Source: a bacterium (GTDB lineage: Bacteria; Bacteroidota; Ignavibacteria; Kapaibacteriales; UBA2268). Taken from it: a DNA stretch of 64,000 nucleotides. The position numbers and the translations under genes were made by a program. Shown piece after piece: positions 11,680 to 57,890 of this stretch (position 1 is the stretch's first letter; each line of letters starts with the position of its first letter). Where the stretch lies: positions 319 through 64,318 of the forward strand of contig JBAXXL010000023.1 of NCBI GenBank assembly GCA_037127915.1. Reading direction: 5' to 3'. Below the pieces are notes generated by a model. That model made no database searches. It saw only the letters and a program-made list of their open reading frames with translations, and was not told the DNA's origin.

Positions 11680-11689
11680 TGCATTCAAT

Positions 11690-11870
11690 TAATCGAAGAT
11701 GGATTCTTCACTCCGCTCAGAAAGACGAACTTCTTATATATCAAGCAGATACCTGTTTTCGCAGGTATGACGGCTTGCAATACCCCATTTTTCAAAGGGG
11801 GCTTGGGGGTTTTCTTCTCTTCTCATTTTCAACTTTCAATTTTCAATTTTCAATTAATTTTCACTAAGTT
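11690..11870 (-). repeat. Family-A modular intergenic repeat copy (inverted orientation; X and Y modules)
   Basis: The reverse complement contains GAGTGAAGAATCCATCTTCGATTAATTGAAT and AATTGAAAATTGAAAATTGAAAGTTGAAAATGAGAAGA, matching copies at 28540, 30300 and 57727. The two short ORFs called here (11628.., 11653..) are spurious. Confidence 0.6.
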
Positions 11871-11907: not shown

Positions 11908-14634
11908 ATGAAAAGTTTTTTGATTATTTTGTGTTGTCTATTTGTCAACATAACTTTATATTCTCAAGGCTCTTCGCTTGATGATATAGTACCGAAACCA
12001 AAATTAGCTTATTACAAAACTTACAGTGCTATGTTTGGTATAAATAATAATACTGTCATTGTATTGAATAGCGAGAATCCTCAGTATTCAGCGGCTTATT
12101 TTCTTAACAAAAAGTTGAAAGAACGATACGTTATCGATACCAGTAAAATTTATCTCGACATGCCACCTGATAATTATGCAAATGTGATATATTTGGGTGT
12201 ATGCGATAGTAAAATAAACGATATGCTATCAAATGACTACGACCAGCCTTATAAAGTTAATAAAGATACACCGGGAAAAGAAGGTTATATTTTAGATGTA
12301 ATACCGGTGCGAATACTGATAAACGCAAGTGACGGCGAAGGTCTAATTAACGCGATTAGAACATTCACGCAAACACTTCTTCCCGGCGATGCTACGACAT
12401 TTGTTCGAGCATATCGCATAATAGATGTCCCGGATTACTCAAGACGCTGGGTTTACTTCCCTACAAATTTCTTAGTAGGTGCTAATACCACTGCCGCTAA
12501 ATCACAATGGAAACAATGGGCGGATTGGAAAATAAATGCCGTAAACCTGACCGATTATAAATTTGATTTTATTAGTACTCAACCGAAACGATACTTCGAT
12601 TCGCTAAGTTCTACTAATAAATTCGCAAAAGCGAACTTTTTGAATATAATTCCATCGACTATGTCTTGGGGATATTCGAACGGCATGATGTTTTTCGATC
12701 CGAATTTTGCAACCGGTTTGCCGGTAAATTTACAGAAATTTGTTATCAAAGCCGATACTGCTGAAATGGTTCCAACAGTAAAAACAACTTTGCCAAACGG
12801 CGATTTTGAAAATTATACAGGAAATAATTTCCCGGGATTTTTGTTTATTGATGGAGCTGGAACGCAAAGCTTTGCAGACAATTCAATCTTTAAGACCGGT
12901 AAAACTTCAATAAGGTTTGAGAATTTTGATGGTTCAAACGCGCGGGTTTGCTATCGTACTAAAGTCAGTCCTTTCAAAGAATATCTAATTTCCGGTTGGG
13001 TAAAAACCGAAAATGCTTCACCGGCTGGCGATATACGGCTAACAGTATTGAATAATAAAGGACAAACGTTGAATTATGCCAATTTGAATGTACCCACCAC
13101 AACTGACGGTTGGAAAAAAATTGATCTCATAGTAAATTCCTTATTAGGAGATACGATGACCGTTTATTTGGGCTTATGGGGAGCTGAGTCAGGTAAAATT
13201 TGGTGGGATGACCTGAAGGTAGAAGAAGCCGCTTTTGTGAATTTGATAAGACGTGAGGGAACACCTTTGAATGTAAACCATCAATATTTGGATGTTGTGA
13301 TTCGCGAAGGAATAGATTATGATACACTTGTGGATAAAAAACTCGGTGCCGCGGCGGGTTGGTTTGGTGAATTTGACACATATCACAAACCGCCGACATT
13401 GAAAATAAAAAATGATGGTATGCTGAAAAATGGCGATACTGTTTTAGCATCGTATTATCACGCTATCACGGTTTATGATGGACAGGTTATGGTTACTATG
13501 TCTGACGATAATCTTTATAAACAAGTGGATAGGGAGTTTCGGCTTTTAGATAGCGTATTGAAGGCAGAAACGTATTTTATGAATCACGACGAATTGCGGG
13601 TAATGAATTGGGATTACGGTGACCAAAGCCGAGGAATATCAGCAAAAGAAATATTAGCGGATAATGTGCACAAATCAATAGATATAATACACAAATACAA
13701 TCCCGAAGCCGATGTATGGGATTGGTCCGATATGTTCGATAATTTTCACAACGCGACTAAGAATTACTATTTAGTAAATGGTGATTTAACTGGTGTAGCG
13801 GATTTGATTCCGAATTCAATGGGCATAGTTAATTGGAATTCAGGTAAGTTATCGAACAGCACTGATTTCTTTGCCGGAAAAGGTTTTAGGCAAATATCTG
13901 CGCCATATTACGATACAGACCAAAATGATATAAGGATATGGAAAGAAAAAACTCAAGGCATTGCCAATTTCGAAGGAATGATGTACACTACTTGGTCACG
14001 AAATTACAATTATGTGAAACATTTTGCCGAATATGGATGGAACCACGCGCCTTATATAACGCATATTCCTCTTTGGGGGATTGAACCCAATAGAAAGCTG
14101 AGCTTCGATGTGCAGATTATCGGTGATGATATGGACAACGGTTGGAAACTTGCAACTGCTAAATTATACTACAGAACCGATGCGAAAGGAAACTTCGTCG
14201 CTAAGAATTTGCATCTTGTTAATAACGCGGCAAATTTAGAAATTGATTTAACAAATGACAATGCATATTTAGAATATTATATCGAAGCTACTGACAATCG
14301 CGGGTGGACTAAGCGCAATCCATTGGAAGCGGATAGATATTACACCCTTGGGACAACGACAAGTGTAAAAGAAGACAATATGAGCCAAGAGTTGCTTATA
14401 TCACCAAATCCGGCAGGAGATTATATTGATATAGAGTTATCAGCAATCAACCCCAAGCTTAAACGTGGGGTTGATGAAACACAAAAAATCTATATTTATA
14501 ATGTTTTAGGAGAAATGGTCTTATCTGTAGGGACAGATCGCGACCTGTCCGCTCGGATAGATATTTCATCATTGTCTAAAGGGCTATATATGGTAAAATA
14601 TGGTCAAAATACTGCTAGGTTTCTGAAAATATAG
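11908..14634 (+). CDS. Large secreted protein with T9SS C-terminal sorting domain (function unknown)
   Basis: 908 aa. Signal peptide. The sorting domain (SPNPAGDYIDIELSAINPKLKRGVDE...LSVGTDRDLSARIDISSLSKGLYMV) is paralogous to that of 49900..51294. Confidence 0.65.
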   Translation: MKSFLIILCCLFVNITLYSQGSSLDDIVPKPKLAYYKTYSAMFGINNNTVIVLNSENPQYSAAYFLNKKLKERYVIDTSKIYLDMPPDNYANVIYLGVCDSKINDMLSNDYDQPYKVNKDTPGKEGYILDVIPVRILINASDGEGLINAIRTFTQTLLPGDATTFVRAYRIIDVPDYSRRWVYFPTNFLVGANTTAAKSQWKQWADWKINAVNLTDYKFDFISTQPKRYFDSLSSTNKFAKANFLNIIPSTMSWGYSNGMMFFDPNFATGLPVNLQKFVIKADTAEMVPTVKTTLPNGDFENYTGNNFPGFLFIDGAGTQSFADNSIFKTGKTSIRFENFDGSNARVCYRTKVSPFKEYLISGWVKTENASPAGDIRLTVLNNKGQTLNYANLNVPTTTDGWKKIDLIVNSLLGDTMTVYLGLWGAESGKIWWDDLKVEEAAFVNLIRREGTPLNVNHQYLDVVIREGIDYDTLVDKKLGAAAGWFGEFDTYHKPPTLKIKNDGMLKNGDTVLASYYHAITVYDGQVMVTMSDDNLYKQVDREFRLLDSVLKAETYFMNHDELRVMNWDYGDQSRGISAKEILADNVHKSIDIIHKYNPEADVWDWSDMFDNFHNATKNYYLVNGDLTGVADLIPNSMGIVNWNSGKLSNSTDFFAGKGFRQISAPYYDTDQNDIRIWKEKTQGIANFEGMMYTTWSRNYNYVKHFAEYGWNHAPYITHIPLWGIEPNRKLSFDVQIIGDDMDNGWKLATAKLYYRTDAKGNFVAKNLHLVNNAANLEIDLTNDNAYLEYYIEATDNRGWTKRNPLEADRYYTLGTTTSVKEDNMSQELLISPNPAGDYIDIELSAINPKLKRGVDETQKIYIYNVLGEMVLSVGTDRDLSARIDISSLSKGLYMVKYGQNTARFLKI

Positions 14635-14840: not shown

Positions 14841-14867
14841 TTTTCAAATTGTTTATATTTTTCTTAA

Positions 14868-15058
14868 AAACCTTATTTCCAGTACAACCTTAGTAGAAAA
14901 ATATTATTTCGGTGTATCTTCCTAACCTTATTACCTTATCTAGAATTTATCTTTTTCTGATAAAATTTTAAAACAATTCCAATTATATTTTTATAAGGTT
15001 GTAAAATCTGACTTTACATTGCTTTTTGCTACTAAGGTTATATGTTAAATAAGGTTAT
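14868..15058. repeat. AACCTTA-heptamer cluster element with 11-bp terminal inverted repeats (AACCTTAGTAG / CTACTAAGGTT)
   Basis: Six AACCTTA/TAAGGTT heptamers. Outer inverted repeats at 14886-14896 and 15029-15039. Copies at 29398-29530 and 30478-30611. Confidence 0.55.
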
Positions 15059-15122
15059 TTTATTGTTTGTCAATTATAATTTCCAATTGCTAAAGGTGGA
15101 TTCTTCGCTTTTCAACTATCAA

Positions 15123-18100
15123 CTATTTAATAACCACCAGCTCCCTAGTTATAAATCCCGAAGGTGTGATAATCGTAATGTAATATGTTCCGCTTGTTAA
15201 ATGCTCCGCATTTATCTCATATCTCGTTTCGCCTTGTGATAAACGAATAGGATCTGTCTTAATTATTTTCCCTTCAGCAGTAGTGATTTGTATTTTCGCA
15301 TCGCACGTTTCAGCATAGTTTATAATTAGTTCAGCATTATTGCCCGTTGGATTCGGATAAAGTTTGATTGAGCTGAAGAGTTCGCATTCTTTAACAGATG
15401 TTGCGGCTGTTGTGTAATGCCAAGTTTCACTCCAAGGCGTTGTGTATTGTTTGCTCACACCTTTGACACGCCAGAAATAATCTGTACTTACTTCTAAATC
15501 TGCTTTCGAAAGTGTCCATTTGGTGTCAACAATTGAATCTTTATCGAATATCACATTCACAAAGTCTTCATCTGTTGCAACTTGCAGATTATAATATTCG
15601 GCTGTAGTTGCCGGGAACCACAATAAAAGCGTCGGAATATTCACACCGGTACTGCCGGTTTTAGGATTCCGTAGTACAAGTGTTACCTTACCCGTTGTAA
15701 AAGTCCAAACATTTGACCATTGCGAAGTGCCGAATGATTCTTCATTCCAAGCTCTAACACGCCAATAATATAGTATTTCCGGTTCCAATTCTTCAACGTA
15801 TTGTTCAGTTTTGGTCAACGAGTCCATAGAGTAAACCATATCGGTAAATAATTCATTTTTTGATATTTGCAATTGATAGAATTTAGAACCAATGACCTCA
15901 TACCATCTGAATTTTATCGTTGTGGATTGATCTTTAGATTTATCGGGTGGATTGAGTAAATTTGCTGATTGGATACCGGATTTAAATGACCGTATTTCCG
16001 ACCATAGCCCAAAACGCTGACCAACTACCAATCTAACTCGCCAAAAATAGTTTTTGTAATATTCCAATTTATTGGTCTGGAATTCGAGTATGTTTTTTAC
16101 TATTTGATCGTCAACAGTTGTTTTAAAATCCACTTCTTTGGAGATTTGAATTTGAAATTCGCTTCCCGCAACGTGTTCCATCCATGTAAATTTGGCATCT
16201 ATAGGCACATTAACTTTTTGGTTTTCTGGATAAATCAATTCAACCGCTTTTAATGAAGTGCTGAATGTCCATATATCGGAGTAATCGCTTGTCCCTTCAC
16301 TGTTAACTGAGCTAACATGCCAATAATATTCAGTCTCAGCGAGCATATTGTCAATAATTTTAAATGTATCCGCACCAGTACTACCTTCGAAAAATAAATC
16401 CGTGAACGCAGAATCCTTAGCAACTTGAATGAAATATGTTAGAGCTTCAGCGGATTTGTGCCAATTGAATTGCTCCGAAAGCTGTTTATCAATCGAATTA
16501 TTTTCGGGATATATTAATTTAGGAGGCCCCATTACGGTACGGAAGTTCCAAACTTCGGACCAGCGGCTTACATTATCTTTAGTGAATGCTTTAACCCTCC
16601 AATAATACTTAGTTAATCCATTTAATTTACTTGTGGTTATTGTAGTGTCGGGGTAGTTGTTTTGTTCAAACACTAATTTATCAAAGTTTTCATCTTCAGC
16701 TACTTGAATTTGGTAATTGGTTGAACCTACTATTTTATGCCATACTAATTCAGCGGACCGCGGAACTGACACTTTACCTTTTTCAGGACTTATCAAAATT
16801 GGCGGCTCCAAACCGATTGTAAATGTTTGTTTTTCTGTCCATTTGCTTCGAGCAGAATGAGTTTTACTGCGTATCCGCCAATAAAAATCGCTACCGTAAA
16901 ACAAATTTAGTACGACTTTACAAACACTGTCACCCGTTACATTTATTTCGAATGGATCAGGAAATTCTTCAATTTGGTCGAATTGTAACTCATATTCTTC
17001 GGCTAATGGAACAGTTTTCCAGGACATTATAGGATTTATTTCCTCGCCTTTTTGGCCATCTTTTGGTGCTATTATAACTGGCGGTTGGAGAGCTTTGCGA
17101 TTAAGAACCTTATACAAAGCATTTGTCCAAATGTAAGTATAGCCACTATAATCGGTACATATTCCACGGACTCGATCCATATTATAGCATCCCTTCATAG
17201 CCTGCCAACTCATTCCATTATTAGAAGCTGTGTATAGTTCATACAGAATTCCTTGATTTGATGTGCTGATTTGGATTGAAACAAAGAAGTCGCCATATAA
17301 ATCCACTTCAATATTTTTGATACTCCAACCATAGTTTGGAACCAAAATATCCGGTTTGAAATTGATCTGCTTCCAAGTCGAACTGAAATTCTGTGTGTAA
17401 TAGATTTTATTATCGCTAGTATTATAATAATATTGATTCCCGTCTTTTCCATAAACTAATTTCACTGAAGGTTTTATAAATACATGTTGATATGAAAGGC
17501 CGTGGTCTATGGATTTAACAAAATTTTCATTCTGGTTCATATACCAATTAGATTCTTTGTCAATAAATAAATTATCTAAAGCCGTTATTCCATAATCAGT
17601 AACGACCCACGATGCTCCAAAGTCATTTGATACATATAAACGATTATCAAATTCCAAGTATGGTTTTGGTATGCCAGGTGGCTGAGTGATGGTATCAGGA
17701 ACAAGATATGTAAATGTAGCAACTAATTTTTTTGCCAAAGTATCATATTCGATAAAATTAAATTCCCAGTATTTTTCTTTTTTCTCCGGTACCGTTAGCA
17801 ATTTATTGAAAGTTTTACCTCCGTCAATTGAACCATATAAACCTTCATCAGCGGCAATAAACATATTCCCTTCCGGAGTGATTTCTACATCATTTATTTT
17901 ACGACATCTAAAGGTACTTAAATAAGTCCAGTCATTTCCATGATTAATTGACTTATAAACTTTTCGTGAATCATAACCGGTTTTAGTAAATAAAATCAAA
18001 GAGTTGTCGTAATCACTTGTGTATAAATTGAGTTGATCTTCATATCCGGGAAAAACATTTTTGTCTTCCTCTGTGATTTTTTTGGCACATATTGTCCAAT

Positions 18101-19088
18101 GTTCTCCGTTATCTGTGCTTCGAGTAACATCACCTAAAGTGCGAGTTGCTAAAATAGTCCCGTTTGGAGAAACAGCGCAGGCTGTTATTCCAAGAGCAAA
18201 TTCTCCTGTATTTTGCCAGCAATTCCATATATCGTCCCAAAAATACATTCCCGCAGAACGTGTACCCATCAGCATTTGATATCGATTTACACCAACTGCC
18301 ACAACTGCAGTATCTAACAAAGGTCCAATGTCATTTAATTGATAGTGATGGTAATTATTAGGATAAGTATTCCAAGTCATACCGTCGCCCGAAAACATTA
18401 CTCCTCCACCATTTGTAGCGGCATAAATTTTTCCGGATTCGTCTTCGGCAAAATCGTTCAAGAAATAATTTTTCAATTCAGTATTTGACAAAACCCAACT
18501 TTTACAAGTGTCCCGTGAGGCATAGACTCCCCCGCCCGCAGTACCGGCAAGAATTCTGCCGTTTCGCATATATAGCAAGCAGGTAACGTTATCATTCCTC
18601 AGACCTTTGTCGGTTCTTGTCCAATTATCACCATTATCATCGGAATAATAAATTCCACCACCATAAGTTCCGCAAATCACTTTACCTTTATTAGTAACTG
18701 TCAAAGCCTGAACATACAAATTTTTCAAACCGTTGTTTTTTTGAGCCCACGTTGCGGCATTATCTTTTGAATAGTATATTCCTTCACCAAAAGTTGCAAC
18801 ATACAAATCCTTATTGGGTGCAATAATTATATCTTTTATACAAGGATTTTCAATTGGAAAAGTAGTCAATTTAACCCATTTTGTACCGCCATCATACGAT
18901 ACATATAGACCGGCACCATTGGTGCCGGCATATACAATTTGGTCGGTTTTGAACTTAAGCACTTCAACTTCGACACCAGTAGGAATAGTGACACGACCCA
19001 TAAAATCTTCCGGTGCACGGGGTATTGCACGTAGATTAAGATTAGTTGATAGGAGCAATAAAAATAAAATAATAGATAAATTCTTCAT
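15123..19088 (-). CDS. Giant T9SS cargo protein: BNR/Asp-box beta-propeller region, six tandem ~95-aa Fn3-like repeats (YYWRV motif) and a sorting domain
   Basis: 1321 aa. Asp-box motifs (SYDGGTKW, SKDNAATW, SDDNGDNW, STDNGEHW, SIDGGKTF). Six repeats, each ending ...YYW(R/H)V...W.F.T. Sorting domain KLYPNPTGNNAEL...GTYYITIITPSG. Inverted paralog of 32238..36194. Confidence 0.7.
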   Translation of the reverse strand: MKNLSIILFLLLLSTNLNLRAIPRAPEDFMGRVTIPTGVEVEVLKFKTDQIVYAGTNGAGLYVSYDGGTKWVKLTTFPIENPCIKDIIIAPNKDLYVATFGEGIYYSKDNAATWAQKNNGLKNLYVQALTVTNKGKVICGTYGGGIYYSDDNGDNWTRTDKGLRNDNVTCLLYMRNGRILAGTAGGGVYASRDTCKSWVLSNTELKNYFLNDFAEDESGKIYAATNGGGVMFSGDGMTWNTYPNNYHHYQLNDIGPLLDTAVVAVGVNRYQMLMGTRSAGMYFWDDIWNCWQNTGEFALGITACAVSPNGTILATRTLGDVTRSTDNGEHWTICAKKITEEDKNVFPGYEDQLNLYTSDYDNSLILFTKTGYDSRKVYKSINHGNDWTYLSTFRCRKINDVEITPEGNMFIAADEGLYGSIDGGKTFNKLLTVPEKKEKYWEFNFIEYDTLAKKLVATFTYLVPDTITQPPGIPKPYLEFDNRLYVSNDFGASWVVTDYGITALDNLFIDKESNWYMNQNENFVKSIDHGLSYQHVFIKPSVKLVYGKDGNQYYYNTSDNKIYYTQNFSSTWKQINFKPDILVPNYGWSIKNIEVDLYGDFFVSIQISTSNQGILYELYTASNNGMSWQAMKGCYNMDRVRGICTDYSGYTYIWTNALYKVLNRKALQPPVIIAPKDGQKGEEINPIMSWKTVPLAEEYELQFDQIEEFPDPFEINVTGDSVCKVVLNLFYGSDFYWRIRSKTHSARSKWTEKQTFTIGLEPPILISPEKGKVSVPRSAELVWHKIVGSTNYQIQVAEDENFDKLVFEQNNYPDTTITTSKLNGLTKYYWRVKAFTKDNVSRWSEVWNFRTVMGPPKLIYPENNSIDKQLSEQFNWHKSAEALTYFIQVAKDSAFTDLFFEGSTGADTFKIIDNMLAETEYYWHVSSVNSEGTSDYSDIWTFSTSLKAVELIYPENQKVNVPIDAKFTWMEHVAGSEFQIQISKEVDFKTTVDDQIVKNILEFQTNKLEYYKNYFWRVRLVVGQRFGLWSEIRSFKSGIQSANLLNPPDKSKDQSTTIKFRWYEVIGSKFYQLQISKNELFTDMVYSMDSLTKTEQYVEELEPEILYYWRVRAWNEESFGTSQWSNVWTFTTGKVTLVLRNPKTGSTGVNIPTLLLWFPATTAEYYNLQVATDEDFVNVIFDKDSIVDTKWTLSKADLEVSTDYFWRVKGVSKQYTTPWSETWHYTTAATSVKECELFSSIKLYPNPTGNNAELIINYAETCDAKIQITTAEGKIIKTDPIRLSQGETRYEINAEHLTSGTYYITIITPSGFITRELVVIK

Positions 19089-24646: not shown

Positions 24647-27600
24647 ATGAAAAATTATATAATACTTACGATATTAGCTTTGTTTTCGTTGACTACAGTC
24701 TCCGCGCAGAACTACTTTATTGAAAACAAGGGACAATGGACGGACGAGGTTTTATTTAAAAACCAATCCGCCGGAAATACTACGTGGATAACGAAAAGTT
24801 CGGTAGTATTCGATTATGCGCAATATTCAGAGATTTCAGAAAATGAATTTTCAGCCACGGGGCAGGTAATTAAAATGGAATTTTTGAATTCTAATTTAAA
24901 TACCGAATATTCTGGGAAAAAAAAATTGAGCGCTTACCATAATTATTTTATCGGTAACAATCAAAATAAATGGAAATCCAAAGTCGCGCTTTATGAAGAT
25001 GCCGTTCTGACAAATGTTTATGAAGGGATTGATTTGAAATTTTACTGGGATGAAGGAACTATTAGATATGATTTCATCGTTGGTCCAAAGTCCAACCCCA
25101 ATCAAATCAAACTGAAATTCAGCGGACAAGATGATATAAGCATCAGCAAAGATAGCGAATTATGCTTAACAACCCGATTCGGTGAAATAAAGCATACGAA
25201 GCTATTGGTTTATCAGATGGTTAATGGTCAGAAGACAGCAATAAAATCCGCTTTTGTTTCCCTTGCCGATAATACATTCAAATTTGAAATTGGCGCTTAT
25301 GATAAATCCCGAGAGTTGGTTATAGATCCCTTAATATATTCTACTTACATTGGTACATCCGATAACGACCGCGCATTCGAAATGACGTTGGCTCCTGACG
25401 GTAAACCAATTATTGTTGGTCTGTCTTGGAATTCATCCTATCCTACCAGTAGCGGTGCATATCAAAAAACGGTAAAAGGTAATTCCGACGGAATTTTGAC
25501 CAAAATGAATGATGATTGTACTGCCGTCTTATTTTCCACGTTTTATGGCGGTTCCCAATGGGAAGAGCCGCGTGGTATCGATTATGACACCGAAGGGAAC
25601 ATTTATATCGCCGGTGAAACTATGTCAACAGATTTTCCGGTTTCATCTATGGCTTATCAAAAAACTGCCGGTGGTAACAACCAATCCGATGCCTTTGTTT
25701 TAAAATTTTCGTCTGATGGCAGTCAACTTATTTTTTCCACTTATTTAGGAACCGCTCAAGCTGACCAAGCCAAAGATTTAAAAATTGACCCAAACGGTTT
25801 TGTATTTGTAATTGGTGAAGCACGGTCTTCGGCTTTTCCAATAACGGCTAATGCCGTTCAAAAAACTTATAGCGGCGGTCCGGTTGACGGATTCTTGACA
25901 GTTTTTTCACCTGATGGAAAGGACTTAGTGTATTCCACTTTCATAGGCGGAACGGGTGACGACTTTCCGCGTAAAATACTGTTAGACGGCGATTTCCTAT
26001 ATATTGTTGGACATACACGATCAACAGATTTTCCGGTTACTGCAAATGCTTATCAAAAAACTATAGGCGGTAATCGTGACGCTTTTTTGATTAAGTACCG
26101 AGGTCAAGGGACAGAGACTTTATTTTCAACTTTTATAGGCGGTAGTTTGGATGATAGTGGAATTGGAATGTGTTTTGATGCCAATAAAAATATAATTTTC
26201 ACAGGTAATACATTTTCTACAAATTATCCGGTCACTAACGATGCTGTTCAAAAAACTCTCGCCGGTGATGATGATGTGATGGTAACAAAGTTCAATCCGG
26301 CAGGAAATCTGATATATTCTACTTTTATAGGTGGTAAAGCAAGCGATAGAGCTAACGATATTCGGTGCGACGAATTTGGTAATTATTACCTGACCGGTAT
26401 GACTAAATCAAATAATTACCCTACAACTTTGAAAGCATTACAAAAAACTTATATAAGCAAAGAAGATGTATTGGTTACTAAGCTCAATCCTAATAATCCG
26501 AGTTTACTTTATTCAACTTATTTAGCAGGGAATAACGAAGATTGGGGACGTAGTATTGCTTGTTATGGAAATACAGTAATTGTTACGGGATATACAAGCA
26601 GTAGTGATTTTTTGATAAGTGATAATGCTTATAAGAAGACATTCAGCGGTAATAGAGACATTTTTCTCACGAAATTCTCGCCCGACGAAGGAACATTGGA
26701 TAAACCTATATTAGTTAATCCAGTAAAAGGCGCGGTTGATGTTATTATTCAGCCAACGCTGATTTGGGAAAAAGTAGATTACGCTGACGCTTATACTGTA
26801 ATAGTTGCCAAAGACATTGATTTGACAAATAAGGTATTTTCTCAAACCGGTATTACAACCCTACAGAAAAAAATAGATACTGAATTGGAATCGAATAAAA
26901 AATATTATTGGGCGGTTACAGCAAAAGCTGGAGCTGTGGTTGGTCCACAGTCCGATGTTTATTCATTTACAACTGAAGTAAATCTATCCGTGCCGACTTT
27001 AATCTCACCTCCAGATAAAGCGGATGATGTTGTATTAACACCAAAATTTACTTGGTCTCAAGAACCCAATACCGATAATTATCATTTACGTCTGCTTAAT
27101 TCAAATAATCCGGATGATATTATTTTCGAAAAACTATTTCCTACCGAAACAGAGTACGTTTCTCCTATTACATTAGAAGAAGGTAAAGAATATTTCTGGA
27201 CAGTCAGAACAATTTATAATGGTGAAATAGGACCTTGGGCTTCGATTTCTTCATTCACAACCAAATCAACCATCAAAGCACCAATTTTGGTCTATCCGGC
27301 GGATAAAGATAAATATGTTCAGTCAAAAAACACTCTATTTTATTGGAAAAAAGAAAAAACAGCAACGCAATACGAAATTTATATTTATGAAGAAGCTGAT
27401 TTAAAATCTCCGATTAAAACCGCTCTAATAAGCGATACATTTTATATTAACAATTCTGATTTGGAATACGGAAAGATTTATTATTGGACAGTTCGCTCGA
27501 AATCGTCCAACCAGACCAGCTCTTGGACAGAAATGTTTAGCTTCCAAACTGAAGTAGTTATGGAAAAACCTATTTTAATTTCTCCCGAAAATTTCACTAA

Positions 27601-28396
27601 AGATTTGACTATTTATCCAAAATTTGTTTGGCACAGGGTTAATTACGCAGTTAAATACAAGCTCGAGATTATGATTCCCGATGCTTTAGTTTATCAAGCA
27701 GAAACAAGCGATACAAGTTTTCAAATGCTCGAGCCGTTGGAAAACGGTGCGGGATTATATTGGCAAGTGAGAGCTATCGGTGTTGATGAAACAGAACAAT
27801 TGTCCGATACTTGGGAATTTAGTACAATCGATGCCTTAATTGCACCAACATTGGTCAGCCCAGACGAAATGGCTCAAATTGACCCCGCAACAGCAACATT
27901 CGTTTGGAATAAAGTTCCACATTATGATGGATTATACAATATTCAGATTTACAAAAGACCCGGCTCTGTCTTGGTTATTGACGAGATTGTAGAAGATACG
28001 GTTTATACTGTTGATGAGCCTCTGCTGTACAACCAAGGTTATTATTGGCAGGTGTCTTATTTCCGTGGTGACGAAACGAGTCCTTGGTCAATAGTCAGAC
28101 GTTTCACAACTTATCCGACTTCAGTAAAAGAAAGCCCACTCTTCAGCTCAATCAAACTTTATCCTAATCCAACGGGCAGTAAAGCTGAACTAAGTATAAA
28201 CTATTCTGAAACCTGCGACGCGAAAATCTTTATCAGCACAGTGGGTGGAAAAATCATTAAAACGGATGTTATCAGATTATTAATTGGCGAAACGCGATAT
28301 GAAATTGACACGGAACACTTAACTTCGGGATCATATTATATTACAATTACCACACCTGCGGGGTATATTACAAGGGAATTAGTAGTTGTTAAATAG
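24647..28396 (+). CDS. Giant T9SS cargo protein: SBBP beta-propeller repeats, Fn3-like YYW repeats and a sorting domain
   Basis: 1249 aa. Repeats of the YSTY.GG..D...DxxGNxYxxGxTxSxDFPxTxxAYQ type (SBBP/PF06739-like). C-terminal half has the same ~95-aa YYW repeats as 15123 and 32238. Sorting domain about 88% identical to that of 32238..36194. Confidence 0.7.
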   Translation: MKNYIILTILALFSLTTVSAQNYFIENKGQWTDEVLFKNQSAGNTTWITKSSVVFDYAQYSEISENEFSATGQVIKMEFLNSNLNTEYSGKKKLSAYHNYFIGNNQNKWKSKVALYEDAVLTNVYEGIDLKFYWDEGTIRYDFIVGPKSNPNQIKLKFSGQDDISISKDSELCLTTRFGEIKHTKLLVYQMVNGQKTAIKSAFVSLADNTFKFEIGAYDKSRELVIDPLIYSTYIGTSDNDRAFEMTLAPDGKPIIVGLSWNSSYPTSSGAYQKTVKGNSDGILTKMNDDCTAVLFSTFYGGSQWEEPRGIDYDTEGNIYIAGETMSTDFPVSSMAYQKTAGGNNQSDAFVLKFSSDGSQLIFSTYLGTAQADQAKDLKIDPNGFVFVIGEARSSAFPITANAVQKTYSGGPVDGFLTVFSPDGKDLVYSTFIGGTGDDFPRKILLDGDFLYIVGHTRSTDFPVTANAYQKTIGGNRDAFLIKYRGQGTETLFSTFIGGSLDDSGIGMCFDANKNIIFTGNTFSTNYPVTNDAVQKTLAGDDDVMVTKFNPAGNLIYSTFIGGKASDRANDIRCDEFGNYYLTGMTKSNNYPTTLKALQKTYISKEDVLVTKLNPNNPSLLYSTYLAGNNEDWGRSIACYGNTVIVTGYTSSSDFLISDNAYKKTFSGNRDIFLTKFSPDEGTLDKPILVNPVKGAVDVIIQPTLIWEKVDYADAYTVIVAKDIDLTNKVFSQTGITTLQKKIDTELESNKKYYWAVTAKAGAVVGPQSDVYSFTTEVNLSVPTLISPPDKADDVVLTPKFTWSQEPNTDNYHLRLLNSNNPDDIIFEKLFPTETEYVSPITLEEGKEYFWTVRTIYNGEIGPWASISSFTTKSTIKAPILVYPADKDKYVQSKNTLFYWKKEKTATQYEIYIYEEADLKSPIKTALISDTFYINNSDLEYGKIYYWTVRSKSSNQTSSWTEMFSFQTEVVMEKPILISPENFTKDLTIYPKFVWHRVNYAVKYKLEIMIPDALVYQAETSDTSFQMLEPLENGAGLYWQVRAIGVDETEQLSDTWEFSTIDALIAPTLVSPDEMAQIDPATATFVWNKVPHYDGLYNIQIYKRPGSVLVIDEIVEDTVYTVDEPLLYNQGYYWQVSYFRGDETSPWSIVRRFTTYPTSVKESPLFSSIKLYPNPTGSKAELSINYSETCDAKIFISTVGGKIIKTDVIRLLIGETRYEIDTEHLTSGSYYITITTPAGYITRELVVVK

Positions 28397-28434: not shown

Positions 28435-28465
28435 GAAAATTTTCTGCCCTTTCTTTATCAGAATT
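28435..28465 (+). terminator. GTAG-preceded hairpin terminator (TGTAG GGGCAGAAAA|TTTTCTGCCC plus T-rich)
   Basis: Perfect 20-nt palindrome immediately after the 24647..28396 stop. The 5' TGTAG flank is the one seen on the other family-A hairpins. Confidence 0.7.
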
Positions 28466-28519
28466 AGAATGAAGGGATTAGAAGATTATAGGATAGATTG
28501 TCATACCCGAGGGATCGGG

Positions 28520-28640
28520 AATCCATCTTCGAATAATTGAAAATAGTAAGTTGAAAATGAGGAGAAAGAGAAGATAAACCCCGTAATTCGTAATTTGAAA
28601 TTCGTAATTGTTGGTCAAAAAGGCTATCCTTTTTTGGGAT
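28520..28640. repeat. Family-A repeat copy (W-X-Y modules) ending in GGCTATCC...GGATAGCC hairpin
   Basis: GGGAATCCATCTTCGAATAATTGAAAAT...GTTGAAAATGAGGAGAAAGAGAAGATAAA...CGTAATTCGTAATT. The hairpin at 28611-28640 reads as a T-tailed terminator on the minus strand for the DUF4160/DUF2442 operon. Confidence 0.6.
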
Positions 28641-28651
28641 AGCCATATAGG

Positions 28652-29164: not shown

Positions 29165-29324
29165 ACTATTTTCCTATTATTATTAACTTTGGCAATATTG
29201 CAAATAAATTACTAATTTTATATATGATTAAACGAATAATCGTAATTCATATTTTGATTATGGATATCATAGTCCAAATTGGATAAATGTTTTTGTTTTG
29301 AAAATAAAAAAGGCTAAACTTATT

Positions 29325-29640
29325 GGGGATGTGCTGTAAGCTTGCTCCGAAAGAGCTAAATCTCAATAACCGCGGGCAAAACCTGTGGGAAGTCCTAAAA
29401 CCTTATTCCCTTAATTAACCTTAGTAGAAAAATGACCGATTTGTCCGCAAACCTTATTACCTTATTGGAAAACGAAAATAAGCGAATAAGGTTAGATGAG
29501 TATATATTTCAGCTTTCCTACTAAGGTTTGAATAGAAAATAATGAACAAAATATTTTTTGTAGAGACGTTGCATGCAACGTCCCTACAAACAGTATTTTA
29601 ATAAAATCAAAAAGGCTATCCTTTTTGGGGGATAGCCTAA
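29325..29640. repeat. ~300-bp repeat B1 (includes AACCTTA cluster, GTAG hairpin 29559-29588 and GGCTATCC terminator hairpin 29613-29637)
   Basis: About 85-90% identical to 30413-30720 by eye. Internal perfect palindrome GACGTTGCATGCAACGTC preceded by TTTGTAGA. Confidence 0.65.
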
Positions 29641-30224: not shown

Positions 30225-30410
30225 GCTTCATTTTCTGAATTAGGGTTCAAAGATTAAAAGATGATAGGAGGGTTTATCATTCCCTAGGCAACGTGAAACC
30301 ATCTTCGAATTATTGAAAATGGGAAATGGAAAGTTGAAAATGAGAAGAAAGAGAAGATAAATCCCGTAATTCGTAATTGATTGGTCAAAAAGGCTATCCT
30401 TTTTTTGAGG
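30225..30410. repeat. Family-A repeat copy (W-X-Y, then GTAATTCGTAATTGATTGG and a partial GGCTATCC hairpin)
   Basis: TTTTCTGAATTAGGGTTCAAAGATTAAAAGATGATAGG...GTGAAACCATCTTCGAATTATTGAAAAT...GAAAGTTGAAAATGAGAAGAAAGAGAAGATAAATCCCGTAATTCGTAATTGATTGG. Confidence 0.6.
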
Positions 30411-30412
30411 AT

Positions 30413-30720
30413 TTGCTCTAAGTTTTTTCTGAAAGAGCTAAATCTCAATGACTGCGGGTGAAACCGAAGAAAATCCTAAAACCTTATTTCCTTTATTAAC
30501 CTTAGTAGAAATATGACCGCTTTATCCGCAAACCTTATTACCTTATTGGAAAACGAAAATAAGCTAATTAGGTTTAAGGCAAAAAAAAATCACCTTTCAT
30601 ACTAAGGTTTGAATAGAAAATAATGAGAAAAATATTTTTGTAGAGAAATAACATGCTACGTCTCTATTTGCCGAATTTACAATAAAATCAAAAAGGGCTA
30701 TCCTTTGTGGGGATAGCCTG
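30413..30720. repeat. ~300-bp repeat B2 (AACCTTA cluster 30478-30611, degenerate GTAG hairpin, GGCTATCC terminator hairpin 30691-30719)
   Basis: Direct repeat of 29325-29640. The hairpin reads as a T-tailed terminator on the minus strand for the lipoprotein operon 30746..32067. Confidence 0.65.
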
Positions 30721-30745
30721 AGCTTTAGGTTAATAATGAGTTTTT

Positions 30746-31396
30746 TTATTTCTTCCTGTTTATATATTCTTCATAACCTTTTCGCATTTGCCATTGAAGA
30801 AATGTATCTTTCATCAATTCGTTGGTTGAGTCGGGTTTGTGTTTTAATGGACGAAAACGCCAGATGGAGTCAGTCAAATGGATTATTCTTTTACCATTTT
30901 CAATATAAGAACCAACATGATAAAGCCCGTGATTATCTAATATTTTGAAAATGTTTTTGGTAGCTTTCCCTTTTTGTAATAAATACTTTAGGTTATAAAG
31001 AAATAGGCTATCATTTGAAATTTGATAAGAACCATAAGTAAATTTCTCATACAATGATGCCCCATTATAACAAAAGTTATGTTCTATCTTATAATCTAAT
31101 AAATTTAAGGAATCAGCTTCACATCTTGATTCTTCGTAAATACCATTAGTAAAAAATATATAAACAAAATATCGATTAGGAGAATCTTCATTATCTATCA
31201 TATCCGTCGGGATGTTTTTTTTGTTTAAATAGTAATAACCATTAATAGGAAAATTTGTATGCTCTTGATACATACCCCAACCGGGCAGAGATTTCTTTGG
31301 ATCGTATCTGTAATCGTGAGCCGAATGGCAACCTGAGATTACTATTAGTGGCAAAATCATAACCCAAAAAAGTCGATTTGTTTTTAGTTTTTTCAT
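30746..31396 (-). CDS. Lipoprotein, tandem paralog 1
   Basis: 216 aa. Lipobox VISGCHS. N-terminal ~50 aa and C-terminal ~35 aa nearly identical to 31399..32067. Central region divergent. Confidence 0.55.
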   Translation of the reverse strand: MKKLKTNRLFWVMILPLIVISGCHSAHDYRYDPKKSLPGWGMYQEHTNFPINGYYYLNKKNIPTDMIDNEDSPNRYFVYIFFTNGIYEESRCEADSLNLLDYKIEHNFCYNGASLYEKFTYGSYQISNDSLFLYNLKYLLQKGKATKNIFKILDNHGLYHVGSYIENGKRIIHLTDSIWRFRPLKHKPDSTNELMKDTFLQWQMRKGYEEYINRKK

Positions 31397-31398
31397 TT

Positions 31399-32067
31399 TT
31401 ATTTCTTCCTGTTTATATACTCTTCATAACCTTTACGCATTTGCCCTTGGAGAAATGTATCTTGCATCAGCTCGTTAGTTGAATCCGGTTTGTGTTTTAA
31501 TGGACGAAACCTTAAAAAAACCGAATCTGTAAAAAGCTGAATTGGTACATTGTCCATTCCAAAATAATATCCAACTGGATGAAGTTCTTTATTATTTAGT
31601 ATTTGAAAAATAGATTTTGGCGGTTTGCCATTTTTCGGAATATAAACATCAATTGAATAAAGAAAAAGGCTATCGTTAGATATTTGATAAGAGCCAAAGT
31701 CATGTGTATTATCAAAAATTTTTTCACCTATATTAATGTTGTTTTCAATATTATAATCCAATTGATTTAATGATTCAGCTTTACATAAGAAATCTTTGTA
31801 AATTCCATTGATATAATAAATATTTATATTGTAAATCGGAATACTATCATTAGTTTCTAAATTAGATTTAAATTCATGGGGTATATGTGTAGCATCATTA
31901 TAATAATATCCATTTATAGGAAAATTTGGATGCTCTTGATAGACACCCCAGCCGGGCAGAGATCTCTTTGGATCATATCCGTTATCGTCAATCGAATGAC
32001 ATCCGGGGATTACTATTAATGGCAAAATCATAACCCAAAAAAGTAGATTTGTTTTTAATTTTTTCAT
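31399..32067 (-). CDS. Lipoprotein, tandem paralog 2
   Basis: 222 aa. Lipobox VIPGCHS. Shares termini RFRPLKHKPDSTNELM.DTFLQ.QMRKGYEEYINRKK with paralog 1. Confidence 0.55.
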   Translation of the reverse strand: MKKLKTNLLFWVMILPLIVIPGCHSIDDNGYDPKRSLPGWGVYQEHPNFPINGYYYNDATHIPHEFKSNLETNDSIPIYNINIYYINGIYKDFLCKAESLNQLDYNIENNINIGEKIFDNTHDFGSYQISNDSLFLYSIDVYIPKNGKPPKSIFQILNNKELHPVGYYFGMDNVPIQLFTDSVFLRFRPLKHKPDSTNELMQDTFLQGQMRKGYEEYINRKK

Positions 32068-32237
32068 ATCCTAAGCCTCTCAAAATAAAAATCCAGATAA
32101 TCAATCAATAAAATTTATCGAAATTACGATATTTTGAATAAATGACAAATTATTTATCAAAGAGAATGTAACAAAATCCCAAAATATGTGTTATTTTGTA
32201 TATAGTGTGTTTATAATAATTATACTTTGGTGAATAT

Positions 32238-35200
32238 ATGAAGAATTTATCGATTATTTTATTTTTATTACTCTTATTAACCACTCTTGCACAAGGTTCG
32301 CTTACACGTGCACCGGAAGATTTCATGGGTCGCGTTACTTTACCTACAGGTGTAGAAGTGGAAGTACTTAAGTTCAAATCAGATCAAATTGTTTACGCAG
32401 GTACAAATGGTGCCGGCTTATATGTATCCTACGATGGTGGATCAAATTGGGGTAAACTAACCGCTTTTCCAGAGGAATTTCCCTGCATAAAAGATATTCT
32501 TATCACAAAGAACAAGGATTTATATGTTGCCACTTATGGTGGTGGTGTTTACTATTCGAATGATAATGGTGCTACTTTTATCCCTAAAAATAATGGGATC
32601 AAAAATTTATTGATTCAAGCATTGGCTGTTACACAGAGCGGCAAATTACTTTGCGGTACTTACGGCGGCGGAATTTACTATTCCGATAATGATGGAGATT
32701 ATTGGACGAGAACCGATGCAGGATTGCGTTATGACAACGTAACCTGTATAACCGAAATGAATAATGGTTTTATTTTAGCCGGTACTTGGGGTGGTGGATT
32801 TTACGTATCCCGAGATACTTGTAAAACATGGCTTGTATCTAATACCCAATTAACGAACATATTTATTAATGACTTAGTCAAAGATGAATCAGGTAAAGTG
32901 TTTGCTGCTACAAACGGAACCGGAGTTATGTTTACCGGTGATGGTATTACATGGCACAACTATAGTAATAAATATCATCACTACCAAGTAAACGACATAA
33001 GCCCGTTATTGGATACCGCTGTTGTCTCTGTTGGAGTAAATAAATATCAGTTGCTTATGGGTACCAGATCGGCAGGAATGTATTTTTGGGATGATATATG
33101 GAATTGCTGGCAAAATACCGGAGAATTTGCTCTTGGCATAACAGCTTGCGCTGTGTCACCAAACGGGACTATTTTAGCAACTCGAACTTTAGGTGATGTT
33201 ACTAGAAGTACCGATAATGGTGAACATTGGACTATTTGCGCAACAAAAATTATTGAATATGATTTAGCTGAGTTCACAGGATTTGAAGACCAATTAAATC
33301 TTTTTACTAGTAAATTCGATAATTCATTGGTATTGTTTTCAAAGTCAAATACCATCAGGAAAGTCTATAAATCTGAAAATCACGGTTATGATTGGAGATA
33401 TTTAGGATCATTGACCGTTAGGAAAATCAATGATGTTGAAATCACCCCTGAAGGGAACATATTTGTTACCGCTGATGAAGGTGTATATGGTTCGATAGAT
33501 GGAGGTAAAACTTTTAATTCGATATTAACGGTACCTGATAAAAAGGAAAAATACTGGGAATTTTACGATATCGAATATGATGCTGTTACTAAAACTATTG
33601 CAACTACATTTGTATATTTTGTTCCCGATACTATCACTCAGCCGCCAAATAAGCCTAAGCCATTTTTAGAGTGTATAAATCGGATATACAAATCAACAAA
33701 TAATGGTACTTCATGGACGAATGCTGATTATGATACAACAGGTATTGATTTTTTCCATATTGATAAACAATCTAATTGGTATATGAGAAAAGGTATTAGT
33801 TTTGTTAAATCGGTAGACCATGGATTATCTTTTAATGCGTTATTTCCACATAAAGTCAAAAGATTAATTTATGGAAAAGATGGTAATCAATATACTTTTG
33901 ACGATCAGAATCAATTGTTTTATTCTTCGAAATTCAGTTCAACTTTTAATCAAATTCCATTTAAACCGGAAATATTGGTTCCAAGTAATGATTGGAGTAT
34001 TAAGAATATATCTATTGACTCAAATAGTAGAATATATGTTTCGATATGGATTAGCACTCCCTCGCAAGGAGTTATTTACGAACTATATAAGACAGATGAT
34101 TTTGGAAATAACTGGCAAACATTAAAAGGATGTTATAACATGGATAGAATCCGTGGAATATGTTCTGATTATAGCGGATATACATATATATGGACGAATG
34201 CTTTATATAAAGTACTAAATCCTATATCGTTAGATGCGCCATTTACTATAACACCGAAAGATGGTCAAAAGGGCGAAGAAATTAATCCTGATTTTGCTTG
34301 GGAGCGCGCAAAATTTGCTGAAGAATACGAACTTCAAATTGACCAGACCGATTTATTCTATTCACCATTTGAAACTAATGCTACTGGTGATACAACTCTT
34401 AAGGCGGTCATAGAATTGAAATATAACCAAGAGTACTATTGGCGGATAAGGAGCAAAACGCACTCGGCGCGTAGTGCTTGGACAATTAATTCATTTACAA
34501 CGGGAATGGAACCTCCGTTTTTGATTAGCCCTGAGAAAGACGAACTTGGTGTTCCGCTGAATGCCGGTTTAAAATGGCATAAAAAAGAAGAGGCAACGCA
34601 TTATTCAATTCAAGTGGCTGAAGATGAGAATTTTGATAAAATTGTTTATTCGCAAGATAATCATCCCGATACAACTATTACAACTAATAAATTAATCGGA
34701 TTAAAAACTTATTACTGGCGCGTGAAAGCATTTACTTCAAACAATGCCAGCAGTTGGTCCGAAGTTTGGAACTTCCAAACTGTTTTGGGACCGCCGAAAT
34801 TAGTCTATCCTGAAAATAATTCTCTTGATAAATTGCTTTCGGAGCAGTTCAAATGGCATAAATCCGCTGAAGCTCAGACTTATTTTATTCAAGTCGCAAA
34901 AGATTCAGCATTCACGGATTTATTTTTTGAAGGTTCATCAGGTGTGGATACATTTAAAATTATCGATAATATGCTACCCGAGACTGATTACTTTTGGCAT
35001 GTAGCATCGGTAAATACTGAAGGAATCAGTGAATATTCAGAAATATGGACGTTCAGAACATCATTTAAACCTTTAGAATTGCAGACCCCAGCTAACGAAA
35101 AGGTTAATGTCCCTCTTGATACTAAATTTACTTGGTTGGAACACAACGGCGGTAGTCAATATCAAATTCAAATATCAAAAGTTAACGATTTCAAAACAAC

Positions 35201-42836: not shown

Positions 42837-42866
42837 ATTAAATTATCGAAAATTGAAGGTAAAAAA

Positions 42867-44171: not shown

Positions 44172-44320
44172 CTTTTTTTAGAGAAAAAATTAAATTTAAG
44201 GAATAATTGACGGAGATTTCTTATATTTGCATATTGGTTTTAAAATAAAGTATTTTTTCAAAAAATAATAGGTTTTTTTCAGAAAAAAAAATGTGTTTTT
44301 AGAATATATTAGGTGTCTTT

Positions 44321-51375: not shown

Positions 51376-51387
51376 ATACATTCTGAA

Positions 51388-51480
51388 CGCAGTGAAGAAT
51401 CCATCTTCTTGAATAGCCACGACTTTTTTTCCTCGGGTCAAGAGTTCCTCTTGACGCGGCGTAATTCGTAATTGATTGAT
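51388..51480. repeat. Family-A repeat copy (X module plus CGTAATTCGTAATTGATTGAT)
   Basis: CATTCTGAACGCAGTGAAGAATCCATCTTC and GCGTAATTCGTAATTGATTGATAATG. Direct repeat of 57716-57890, flanking the three-gene operon. Confidence 0.6.
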
Positions 51481-57707: not shown

Positions 57708-57890
57708 GGGATCCGTCATTCTGAACGAAGTGAAGAATCCATCTTCAATTAATTAAAAATTGAAAGTTGAAAGTTGAAAATAAGAAGAAGAATTCACCGC
57801 AAAGACGCGGAGACGCGAAGAAATTGTTTTATCTGTAGGGACAGGTCGCGACCTGTCCACCTTTGCAACTCGTAATTCGTAATTGATTGA
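57708..57890. repeat. Family-A repeat, most complete copy (W-X-Y-Z, GTAG hairpin GGACAGGTCGCGACCTGTCC, CGTAATTCGTAATTGATTGAT)
   Basis: Perfect 20-nt palindrome at 57839-57858 with 5' flank GAAGAAATTGTTTTATCTGTAGG, shared with sorting-domain coding sequence at 51170-51210 and 14510-14550. Confidence 0.65.

Follow-up and report, generated by a model that had tools for sequence, protein, structure and literature searches.

A stretch of 64,000 nucleotides (nt) from a bacterium of the Kapaibacteriales (assembly GCA_037127915.1, contig JBAXXL010000023.1, positions 319 to 64,318), referred to here as the window, carries three dense clusters of the heptamer AACCTTA and its complement TAAGGTT, and the question raised by these clusters is whether they are binding sites, structures acting in RNA or parts of a mobile element. 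A first-pass annotation had proposed either iterons or multimeric protein-binding sites, or alternatively a miniature inverted-repeat transposable element (MITE) with terminal inverted repeats. The analysis described here makes it likely that the three loci are non-autonomous, two-armed, MITE-like derivatives of a mobile or domesticated unit of about 580 nt that encodes a Y1 transposase, and the MITE proposal was essentially right in the sense that they would be gene-less derivatives carrying the same arms as that unit. Within the window these elements are an ordinary dispersed non-coding repeat; as a family, they combine an unusual architecture with an enzyme that previously had no partner. 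Their closest analogues are the REPINs, which are inverted doublets of repetitive extragenic palindromic (REP) sequences, and the terminal inverted repeats of the 'TIRtrons'.

Three two-armed elements, and no more, are present in the window (14865-15058, 29396-29542 and 30477-30623, with sizes of 147-194 nt), copies 2 and 3 reaching positions 29546 and 30627, respectively, when a degenerate outer box is counted. Reading of the sequence and alignment revealed an order common to all copies, with boxes A-B-C in the left arm, a short central stretch that leaves a gap of 6-51 nt between arms, and boxes C'-B'-A' in the inverted right arm. Box A is AAACCTTATTT, tabulated as AAACCTTATT(T); box B joins the heptamer directly to an invariant GTAG (AACCTTAGTAG) and is located 8-9 nt 3' of box A; and box C is AACCTTATTACCTTATT, about 22-27 nt 3' of box B. 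Each arm contains four heptamers, one in box A, one in box B and two in box C. The six arms are the following:

14865..14941, plus strand: left arm of copy 1 (arm profile E=1e-11, sequence and heptamer positions), with box A at 14866-14878 (AAAAACCTTATTT), box B at 14886-14896 (AACCTTAGTAG) and box C at 14924-14939 (AACCTTATTACCTTAT).
14993..15058, minus strand: right arm of copy 1 (profile E=1.1e-6, 36-nt inverted repeat I18, interrupted hairpin z=-3.3), with box C' at 14993-15000 (a single ATAAGGTT), box B' at 15029-15039 (CTACTAAGGTT) and box A' at 15047-15059 (AAATAAGGTTATT).
29396..29468, plus strand: left arm of copy 2 (profile E=1.5e-13, sequence), with box A at 29396-29408, box B at 29417-29427 and box C at 29450-29466.
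29475..29546, minus strand: right arm of copy 2 (profile E=4.5e-9, single-stranded DNA fold z=-3.7), with box C' at 29477-29493 (AATAAGCGAATAAGGTT), box B' at 29518-29528 and a degenerate box A' at 29537-29546 (AAATAATGAA).
30477..30549, plus strand: left arm of copy 3 (profile E=9.1e-14, sequence), with box A at 30477-30489, box B at 30498-30508 and box C at 30531-30547.
30556..30627, minus strand: right arm of copy 3, partly decayed (profile E=1e-5, fold z=-3.2 on the plus strand and -4.8 on the minus strand), with box C' at 30558-30574 (AATAAGCTAATTAGGTT), box B' at 30599-30609 (ATACTAAGGTT, one mismatch) and a degenerate box A' at 30618-30627.

The heptamer AACCTTA was found 24 times in the window versus 13.2 +/- 3.8 expected, a count reached by none of 100 shuffles (0/100), and 15 of these 24 occurrences fall inside three stretches totalling about 490 nt, with the other 9 at background level. 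The clusters reported in the first-pass annotation are therefore real and lie above background. Matches to the 11-mer AACCTTAGTAG with up to one mismatch (6 versus 0.79 expected) were located exclusively at the three copies, arranged at each site as a plus-strand copy followed by a minus-strand copy. The same annotation had credited every copy with 5-6 heptamers and with a perfect 11-mer inverted repeat as its boundary; copy 3 departs from the first two descriptions, with 4 exact heptamers and one mismatch in its right 11-mer (ATACTAAGGTT, 30599-30609), and the boundary had to be moved outwards in general because box A lies outside the 11-mer pair. This outer box (AAACCTTATT / AATAAGGTTT) is situated 8-9 nt beyond the pair; copy 1 has it intact at either end, and in copies 2 and 3 the right-hand one is degenerate (AAATAATGAA / AAATAATGAG). 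An arm profile derived from other genomes only recovered exactly the six window arms (E 9e-14 to 1e-5), with no further match.

A scan of one genome per species with the pattern AACCTTATT-N6-12-AACCTTAGTAG matched at least 120 stretches. Among the matches listed, carriers belong to Bacteroidota, Ignavibacteriota, Chlorobiota, Calditrichota, KSB1 and Desulfobacterota, including Bacteroidales, Prolixibacteraceae and other Marinilabiliales, Paludibacter, Lentimicrobiaceae, Melioribacteraceae, Kapaibacterium, Desulfobacterales and Desulfococcaceae. Boxes A and B were fixed by the scan pattern, and their conservation was judged independently in the loci chosen by similarity to the Y1 protein alone (see below), where both were also conserved. 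Across the scan loci, box C, the base after box A and an A-rich run before box A are conserved; outside box A conservation is gone within about 4 nt, and the spacers are unconserved, except that the one between B and C is G-poor. The spacing is constrained as well, with start-to-start distances of 18-21 nt from A to B and 32-37 nt from B to C. Selection acts on the boxes and on their spacing.

When the left arm was compared with the reverse-complemented right arm in 57 two-armed elements, identity was 0.94 in the box columns and 0.33 in the spacer columns, the latter being the value expected from column composition, and therefore the two arms share boxes only. A single arm consists of direct repeats without self-complementarity, and pairing between left and right arms is limited to the boxes. 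Among the matches listed, the scan loci contain 238 arms, of which 108 make 54 short convergent pairs and 105 are solo, and one pair encloses a gene. All short elements are extragenic (57/57), none of them overlapping an open reading frame (ORF) of at least 100 amino acids under crude ORF calling, and they are mostly downstream of at least one gene; their neighbours, where classifiable, are in tandem (29), convergent (7) or divergent (2) orientation. Arms from one genome share spacer and internal sequence, e.g. in OY782765.1 and HSG9, and these genome-specific subfamilies suggest amplification of the elements inside genomes. A full-text literature search for the box sequences and for Y1-plus-repeat associations in Bacteroidota did not retrieve a description of this family, although coverage was incomplete and an earlier description is possible.

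In some genomes the arms are mostly solo and same-oriented (Melioribacteraceae OY782765.1, loci L005, L070, L075, L105, L115 and L119; Mariniphaga, locus L083), and these solo arms run into lineage-specific conserved sequence (e.g. ...AACCTTATTGCCTTTTTATTTTTCGGTATCGGAATTAAAAAATCAGAGTAAGAG) in place of an inverted partner, which suggests composite or one-armed derivatives.

The source of the arms was indicated by the gene that they enclose. A Y1 gene was found beside or between arms in four loci among the matches listed (L108, L104, L021 and L109), and in L108 the arms enclose a 146-codon ORF that starts about 25 nt past box C and has a stop codon overlapping box C'. A reverse test was carried out with 80 metagenome loci fetched by similarity to the 145-amino-acid Y1 protein alone. 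In the assessable loci, an inward-facing arm was present upstream of the Y1 gene in 64/74, downstream in 73/76 and on both sides in 58/70. Box B starts at a median of 60 nt before the ATG and box B' lies at a median of 50 nt past the gene, the background of B boxes more than 600 nt away in the same loci being 0.056 per kb. The complete units (n=47) fall into two main size classes, with 34 units of 146-254 nt (mostly 146-193 nt) and 9 of 574-596 nt, 8 of these 9 coming from loci retrieved by Y1 similarity; in the four others (331, 414, 450 and 758 nt), arms may have been wrongly paired. About 460 nt separate the two arms of a Y1-bearing unit. One scan for other cargo between inward-facing arms 300-5000 nt apart yielded just housekeeping genes located between separate elements, and the Y1 gene was the sole compact, tightly enclosed cargo in it.

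The L108 protein matches the Pfam family Y1_Tnp (PF01797; 69 bits, 5e-19) and the NCBIfam IS200 model NF033573 (57.2 bits, cutoff 55), and scores 16.5 bits against the NCBIfam RAYT model NF047646, for which the cutoff is 80. Its nearest solved structures are the TnpA proteins of ISDra2 and IS608, with the HUH (HVH) and catalytic tyrosine motifs aligned, and the E. coli TnpA-REP structure was not among its PDB matches. The motif KYILNQREHH corresponds to the class 1 signature Y---Q--HH, and it is accompanied by a WQ motif and a short conserved C-terminal tail. The protein family comprises 4461 clusters at E<=1e-10, most of them on 1-3 contigs, and it is labelled 'IS200/IS605 family transposase' by NCBI and 'RayT' by JGI. 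In the window no Y1 ORF was detected by tblastn (best profile match E=0.31), and the window copies are for this reason considered gene-less derivatives.

The boxes vary together with the enzyme. Some Y1 units carry heptamer variants (AACCTCA, AACCTAA, ACCCTAA or ACCCTTA), and the variant recurs in boxes B and C and on both arms, whereas the GTAG after box B never changes; in one neighbouring short element examined (L198) the variant was also present. About 20 units have a non-canonical B box on at least one side, of which 8 are fully and 3 partly concordant between left and right, the rest looking like single decays. Units with a common variant are each other's nearest Y1 relatives. Since direct repeats within an arm do not pair, this concerted change argues for a single co-evolving reader, and the adjacent Y1 enzyme is the obvious candidate; the co-variation is supportive of this assignment and not proof of it. 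The idea of multimeric binding sites for a protein is likewise plausible, as it would fit invariant boxes, constrained spacing, free spacers and variants that track the Y1 clade.

Box A shows variation of its own. It is doubled in some lineages (AACCTTATTtatACCTTATT; L198 at 700-1040, L171, L174, L139 and others), and in other lineages its variant (AACCTAATT) differs from the variant of boxes B and C (AACCTCA), so the outer box may be read differently from the inner ones.

From these data we infer a role of the Y1 enzyme as reader and mobiliser of the elements, as well as the strandedness of its substrate, the cleavage sites and any present-day activity, and the following scheme is proposed. 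The parent unit of about 580 nt would consist of a left arm A-B-C, a gene of about 145 codons for an IS200-like Y1 enzyme of the HUH type and an inverted right arm C'-B'-A', and the window copies would have kept the arms and lost the gene. A Y1 enzyme encoded elsewhere in the genome would recognise the four heptamers of each arm, either as duplex sites or as box:box' stems formed by the two arms in single-stranded DNA. By analogy with IS200/IS605 and RAYT enzymes, it would cut and rejoin single strands near the GTAG/CTAC tags without generating a target-site duplication, and gene-less units could spread into intergenic DNA by such cutting and rejoining. The interrupted hairpin folded in single-stranded DNA could be the substrate; alternatively, the boxes could be recognised in duplex DNA, perhaps via the short conserved C-terminal tail. 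The existence of solo arms and the separation of about 460 nt between the arms of gene-bearing units mean that recognition cannot depend on a local hairpin.

Several observations weigh against this proposal. The window is nearly all of a 65,372-nt metagenome contig (ERZ4201038 NODE_430), and the search for a Y1 gene covers no more than that. Known Y1 transposases bind local hairpins in single-stranded DNA, yet the arm has no self-complementarity and many arms are solo (105 of the 238 mentioned above), so either the boxes are read by another protein or the Y1 enzyme recognises its substrate in a manner unlike that of IS608 and RAYT. Common descent could account for part of the agreement between box variants and Y1 clades. 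The analysis revealed no transposition event, excision junction or empty site, and consequently the exact ends and the mobility of the elements are inferred. The genes that flank copy 1 were found elsewhere only on short contigs or on the same contig. Finally, the window bears no sign of recent activity, because copies 1 and 2 are alike in little except the boxes and the similarity of copies 2 and 3 is explained by duplication. These two copies are 87% identical and are embedded in a longer duplicated module, which is context and not part of the element proper, so they are probably one insertion followed by a later segmental duplication. The module is the following:

29320..29638, no strand assigned: duplicated module of about 320 nt around copy 2, with its twin at 30402-30719 around copy 3 (direct repeats D2, D12 and D16; alignments); it also holds a GTAG-tagged palindrome (29560-29587) and a minus-strand terminator hairpin GGCTATCC..GGATAGCC (29614-29637).

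Among the other explanations, the one that survives best, although it is unlikely, is that the elements act in RNA, as a structured small RNA or as a bidirectional hairpin terminator or 3'-end stabiliser, the boxes being RNA stems. Folding of each of the three copies gives a long interrupted hairpin with the box:box' pairs as its stems (z -3.2 to -4.8), their ends read AAAAACC...GGTTTTT and place a T-run 3' of the hairpin on either strand, and the extragenic location, mostly downstream of at least one gene, would suit such a function, which has been proposed for many REPs. However, Rfam 15 gave no gathering-score match in the window and, near the copies, only sub-threshold matches to unrelated families. 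The stems coincide with invariant boxes and hence no covariation backs a structure, the spacers are complementary between arms no more than expected by chance, the solo arms keep their boxes, and the arm separation in Y1-bearing units does not favour a hairpin. An RNA function may have been acquired as a secondary, exapted role, and a side role as hairpin terminator or mRNA stabiliser is possible, given the T-run that follows the hairpin on either strand.

It is very improbable that the clusters are iterons or operators, that is, multimeric sites for a host replication initiator or for a regulator of an origin or of toxin-antitoxin (TA)-like operons, without any transposition. The first-pass annotation had correctly placed one copy between convergent gene 3' ends and the other two upstream of TA-like pairs. 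Copy 1 lies between 11908-14634 (plus strand) and 15123-19088 (minus strand). Copies 2 and 3 are both located between minus-strand genes; each follows one gene set with its terminator hairpin and, read along the minus strand, lies upstream of a DUF4160/DUF2442 pair (copy 2, 29164->28652) or of a DUF2283 pair (copy 3, 30135->29664). Heptamers iterated in both orientations with fixed spacing and free spacers, together with the position of these two copies, are what an operator would show. Nevertheless, copy 1 is flanked by two convergent gene 3' ends, copies 2 and 3 belong to a duplicated module, the arms occur at 120 or more unrelated chromosomal sites in several phyla, and they enclose a Y1 gene in most of the loci chosen by protein alone. 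No rep or regulator gene is consistently adjacent to the arms, and no rep gene was found in the ORFs inspected near the three copies, which are only a part of the ORFs of the window. A single match was obtained in 2.9 million viral contigs, which indicates that the family is not a phage feature. Replication iterons are consequently not supported, and the position near TA-like pairs points to coincidence or local duplication. Some arms directly precede genes (e.g. L023 and L008), and a promoter reading was considered and dropped because arms flank the Y1 gene at either end and also occur between convergent genes.

Slightly less probable still is that these are ordinary MITEs of an insertion sequence (IS) with a DDE transposase, the Y1 gene being a frequent passenger or neighbour. 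The elements have the general features of MITEs, since they are short, non-coding, dispersed and present in several copies, with inverted ends that are shared with a longer transposase-encoding unit. Correia/NEMIS, RUP and ERIC elements, MITEs linked to DDE transposases that have continuous terminal inverted repeats and usually target-site duplications, resemble them in being short, non-coding, dispersed in intergenic DNA and inverted at their ends, and in their capacity to fold as transcript hairpins. By contrast, the present arms share boxes only, the boxes co-vary with Y1 clades, and the only compact cargo enclosed, in the single cargo scan, was the Y1 gene, which extends from about 25 nt past box C to box C'. 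A target-site duplication, the remaining feature of MITEs, for which a check had been suggested in the first-pass annotation, was not found consistently at any offset or length (best 11/45 matches versus 4.6 expected), and its absence is what a Y1 mechanism would predict.

Integron-like attC sites in a cassette array that holds the TA-like pairs are hardly credible and were rejected: at 28.4-32.1 kb, pairs of small genes on one strand are interspersed with repeats of about 150 nt that are imperfect palindromes, and TA cassettes are typical of chromosomal integrons, but the ends (GTACAAC, AATTAAC and GTTATAT, GTTTGAA) misfit the RYYYAAC / GTTRRRY cores, copy 1 is isolated, and the family brackets a Y1 gene and not an integron integrase (window genes were not screened for one).

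Derivation from a Y1 unit, the interpretation preferred here, places the elements beside several known systems. The textbook example of a transposase that persists in bacterial genomes alongside its miniature repeats is provided by the REP-RAYT pairs, most of the known ones being proteobacterial. In the REPIN / REP-RAYT systems ('REPtrons'), reportedly described by Nunvar in 2010, Bertels and Rainey in 2011 and Ton-Hoang in 2012, the likeness comprises a Y1 (HUH) gene flanked by inverted short extragenic repeats, gene-less inverted doublets dispersed in intergenic DNA, a GTAG (GT[AG]G) tag, a repeat that co-varies with the enzyme and the lack of target-site duplication. The two differ in that a REP is a GC-rich hairpin with GTAG at its foot, whereas the repeat described here is an arm of about 75 nt that is AT-rich, contains four heptamers and lacks self-complementarity, and in that the enzyme belongs to class 1 (Y---Q--HH), RAYT being class 2 (Y---NP). 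The present elements are therefore placed outside the RAYT/REP family, because the repeat unit is not a hairpin and the enzyme is not of the RAYT class. Classical IS200/IS605 elements also encode a Y1 HUH transposase, present here in the parent unit only and not in the window copies, but their ends carry subterminal hairpins on a single strand and lack inverted repeats, whereas here inverted arms without local hairpins are found, and this end structure excludes the elements from that group.

The TIRtrons are closer in their organization, with a gene for a Y1 protein (TIRYT) flanked by non-hairpin terminal inverted repeats that are also scattered as singles, dimers and clusters (Di Nocera et al. 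2013, PMC3733652). The TIRYTs described are RAYT-like, mostly of subclass 2.1, with helix-turn-helix tails, and come from Proteobacteria and Acidobacteria, most of the inverted repeats sharing GGGGWSAS (PMC3733652). Both systems have a Y1 gene between terminal inverted repeats that also form a dispersed family, although the protein (class 1), the repeat sequence (AACCTTA boxes) and the host phyla all differ, and boxes replace a continuous repeat. With regard to the enzyme, the Y1 subclass 1.2 was defined by proteins of about 148 amino acids with a WQ motif and Y---Q--HH, present in Bacteroidetes at low copy number (Quentin et al. 2018, PMC6006769), and was described as IS200-like in sequence but lacking IS200-type ends, with the entry 'REP: no' (PMC6006769). 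The present Y1 partner fits this subclass in its sequence features, with about 145 amino acids, Pfam Y1_Tnp, the WQ and Y---Q--HH motifs, a short conserved C-terminal tail, few contigs per cluster and occurrence in Bacteroidetes. The repeat search of that study accepted only GT[AG]G tags at 0-2 nt from a GC-rich hairpin (PMC6006769), and AT-rich, non-hairpin arms would have escaped it.

A broader proposal, which is put forward tentatively and is rather more likely to fail than to hold, is that the AACCTTA/GTAG arms and the 145-amino-acid Y1 enzyme of 'subclass 1.2' constitute an unrecognised partnership of the REPIN-RAYT type in the Fibrobacterota-Chlorobiota-Bacteroidota (FCB) group and Desulfobacterota, in which a class 1 HUH enzyme would read fixed-spacing heptamer arrays instead of a local hairpin. 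If this is true, Y1 enzymes would have a further, novel way of recognising their substrate, and the 'domesticated transposase plus genomic repeat population' would have arisen independently a second time. Subclass 1.2, an orphan since 2018, gains a likely DNA partner in a multi-phylum repeat family with box-and-spacer architecture; annotators gain a simple means of spotting a repeat at which metagenome assemblies break, together with a warning that such clusters should not be read as operators of neighbouring genes. What the enzyme binds and cuts, and whether the system is selfish or domesticated, become testable questions.

The G+C content of the window is 31-41% per 2-kb segment and mostly 33-38%, and large proteins with type IX secretion tails are encoded in it (see below), features that point to the FCB group. 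Other repeats were also observed. Adjoining copies 2 and 3 are GTAG-tagged palindromes GTAGAGACGTTGCATGCAACGTCCCTAC (29560-29587 and 30640-30666), and further GTAG-tagged palindromes, GTAGGGACAGGTCGCGACCTGTCC (D13), are located at 14511-14550, 51171-51210 and 57819-57858. These palindromes are of the classical type, so the genome also bears REP-like hairpin repeats of the canonical kind, for which another Y1/RAYT enzyme may be responsible. The minus-strand terminator hairpin AAAAAGGCTATCC-TTTTT-GGGATAGCC is present five times (28618-28646, 29311-29336, 29610-29638, 30388-30412 and 30691-30719), whole after each gene set and as its left half only at the start of each 320-nt module, so that a direct repeat of about 22 nt stands at either end of the modules holding copies 2 and 3. 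The DUF4160/DUF2442 pair separates repeat blocks that are adjacent in the other instance (28451-28595 ... 29320 versus 30227-30378/30402), which looks like recombination or cassette-like insertion at the terminator hairpin.

A second dispersed intergenic repeat family, consisting of CGTCATTCTGAACGAAGTGAAGAATCCATCTTC followed by TTGAAAGTTGAAAATGAGAAGA-type runs in both orientations, was found at 11684-11860, 28451-28595, 30227-30378, 51381-51408 and 57714-57789 (D4, D10, D18, I8, I9, I14 and I24). A conserved hairpin AGCAATCAACCCCA..GCTTAA..TGGGGTTGATG is situated at 14442-14476 and 51102-51136 (D17, 91% identical), inside the 3' ends of two genes, where it adjoins the D9 and D13 repeats, the entire 3' segment 14442-14597 being repeated at 51102-51257.

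Gene-sized duplications are also present. Three paralogous cell-surface proteins of about 1250-1320 amino acids with type IX secretion tails are encoded at 15123-19088 (minus strand), 24647-28396 (plus strand) and 32238-36194 (plus strand), two of these genes being inverted relative to each other with a DNA identity of about 72-76%, and 42260-45561 is occupied by three successive gene-sized repeats of 1.3-1.45 kb. Lipoprotein paralogs are arranged in tandem at 30746-31396 and 31399-32067 (minus strand), and an independent short-read contig with the lipoprotein genes (L204, Logan SRR12676970, corresponding approximately to window positions 30603-32396) ends within the right arm of copy 3, as would be expected if the element is a repeat that breaks assemblies from that community.

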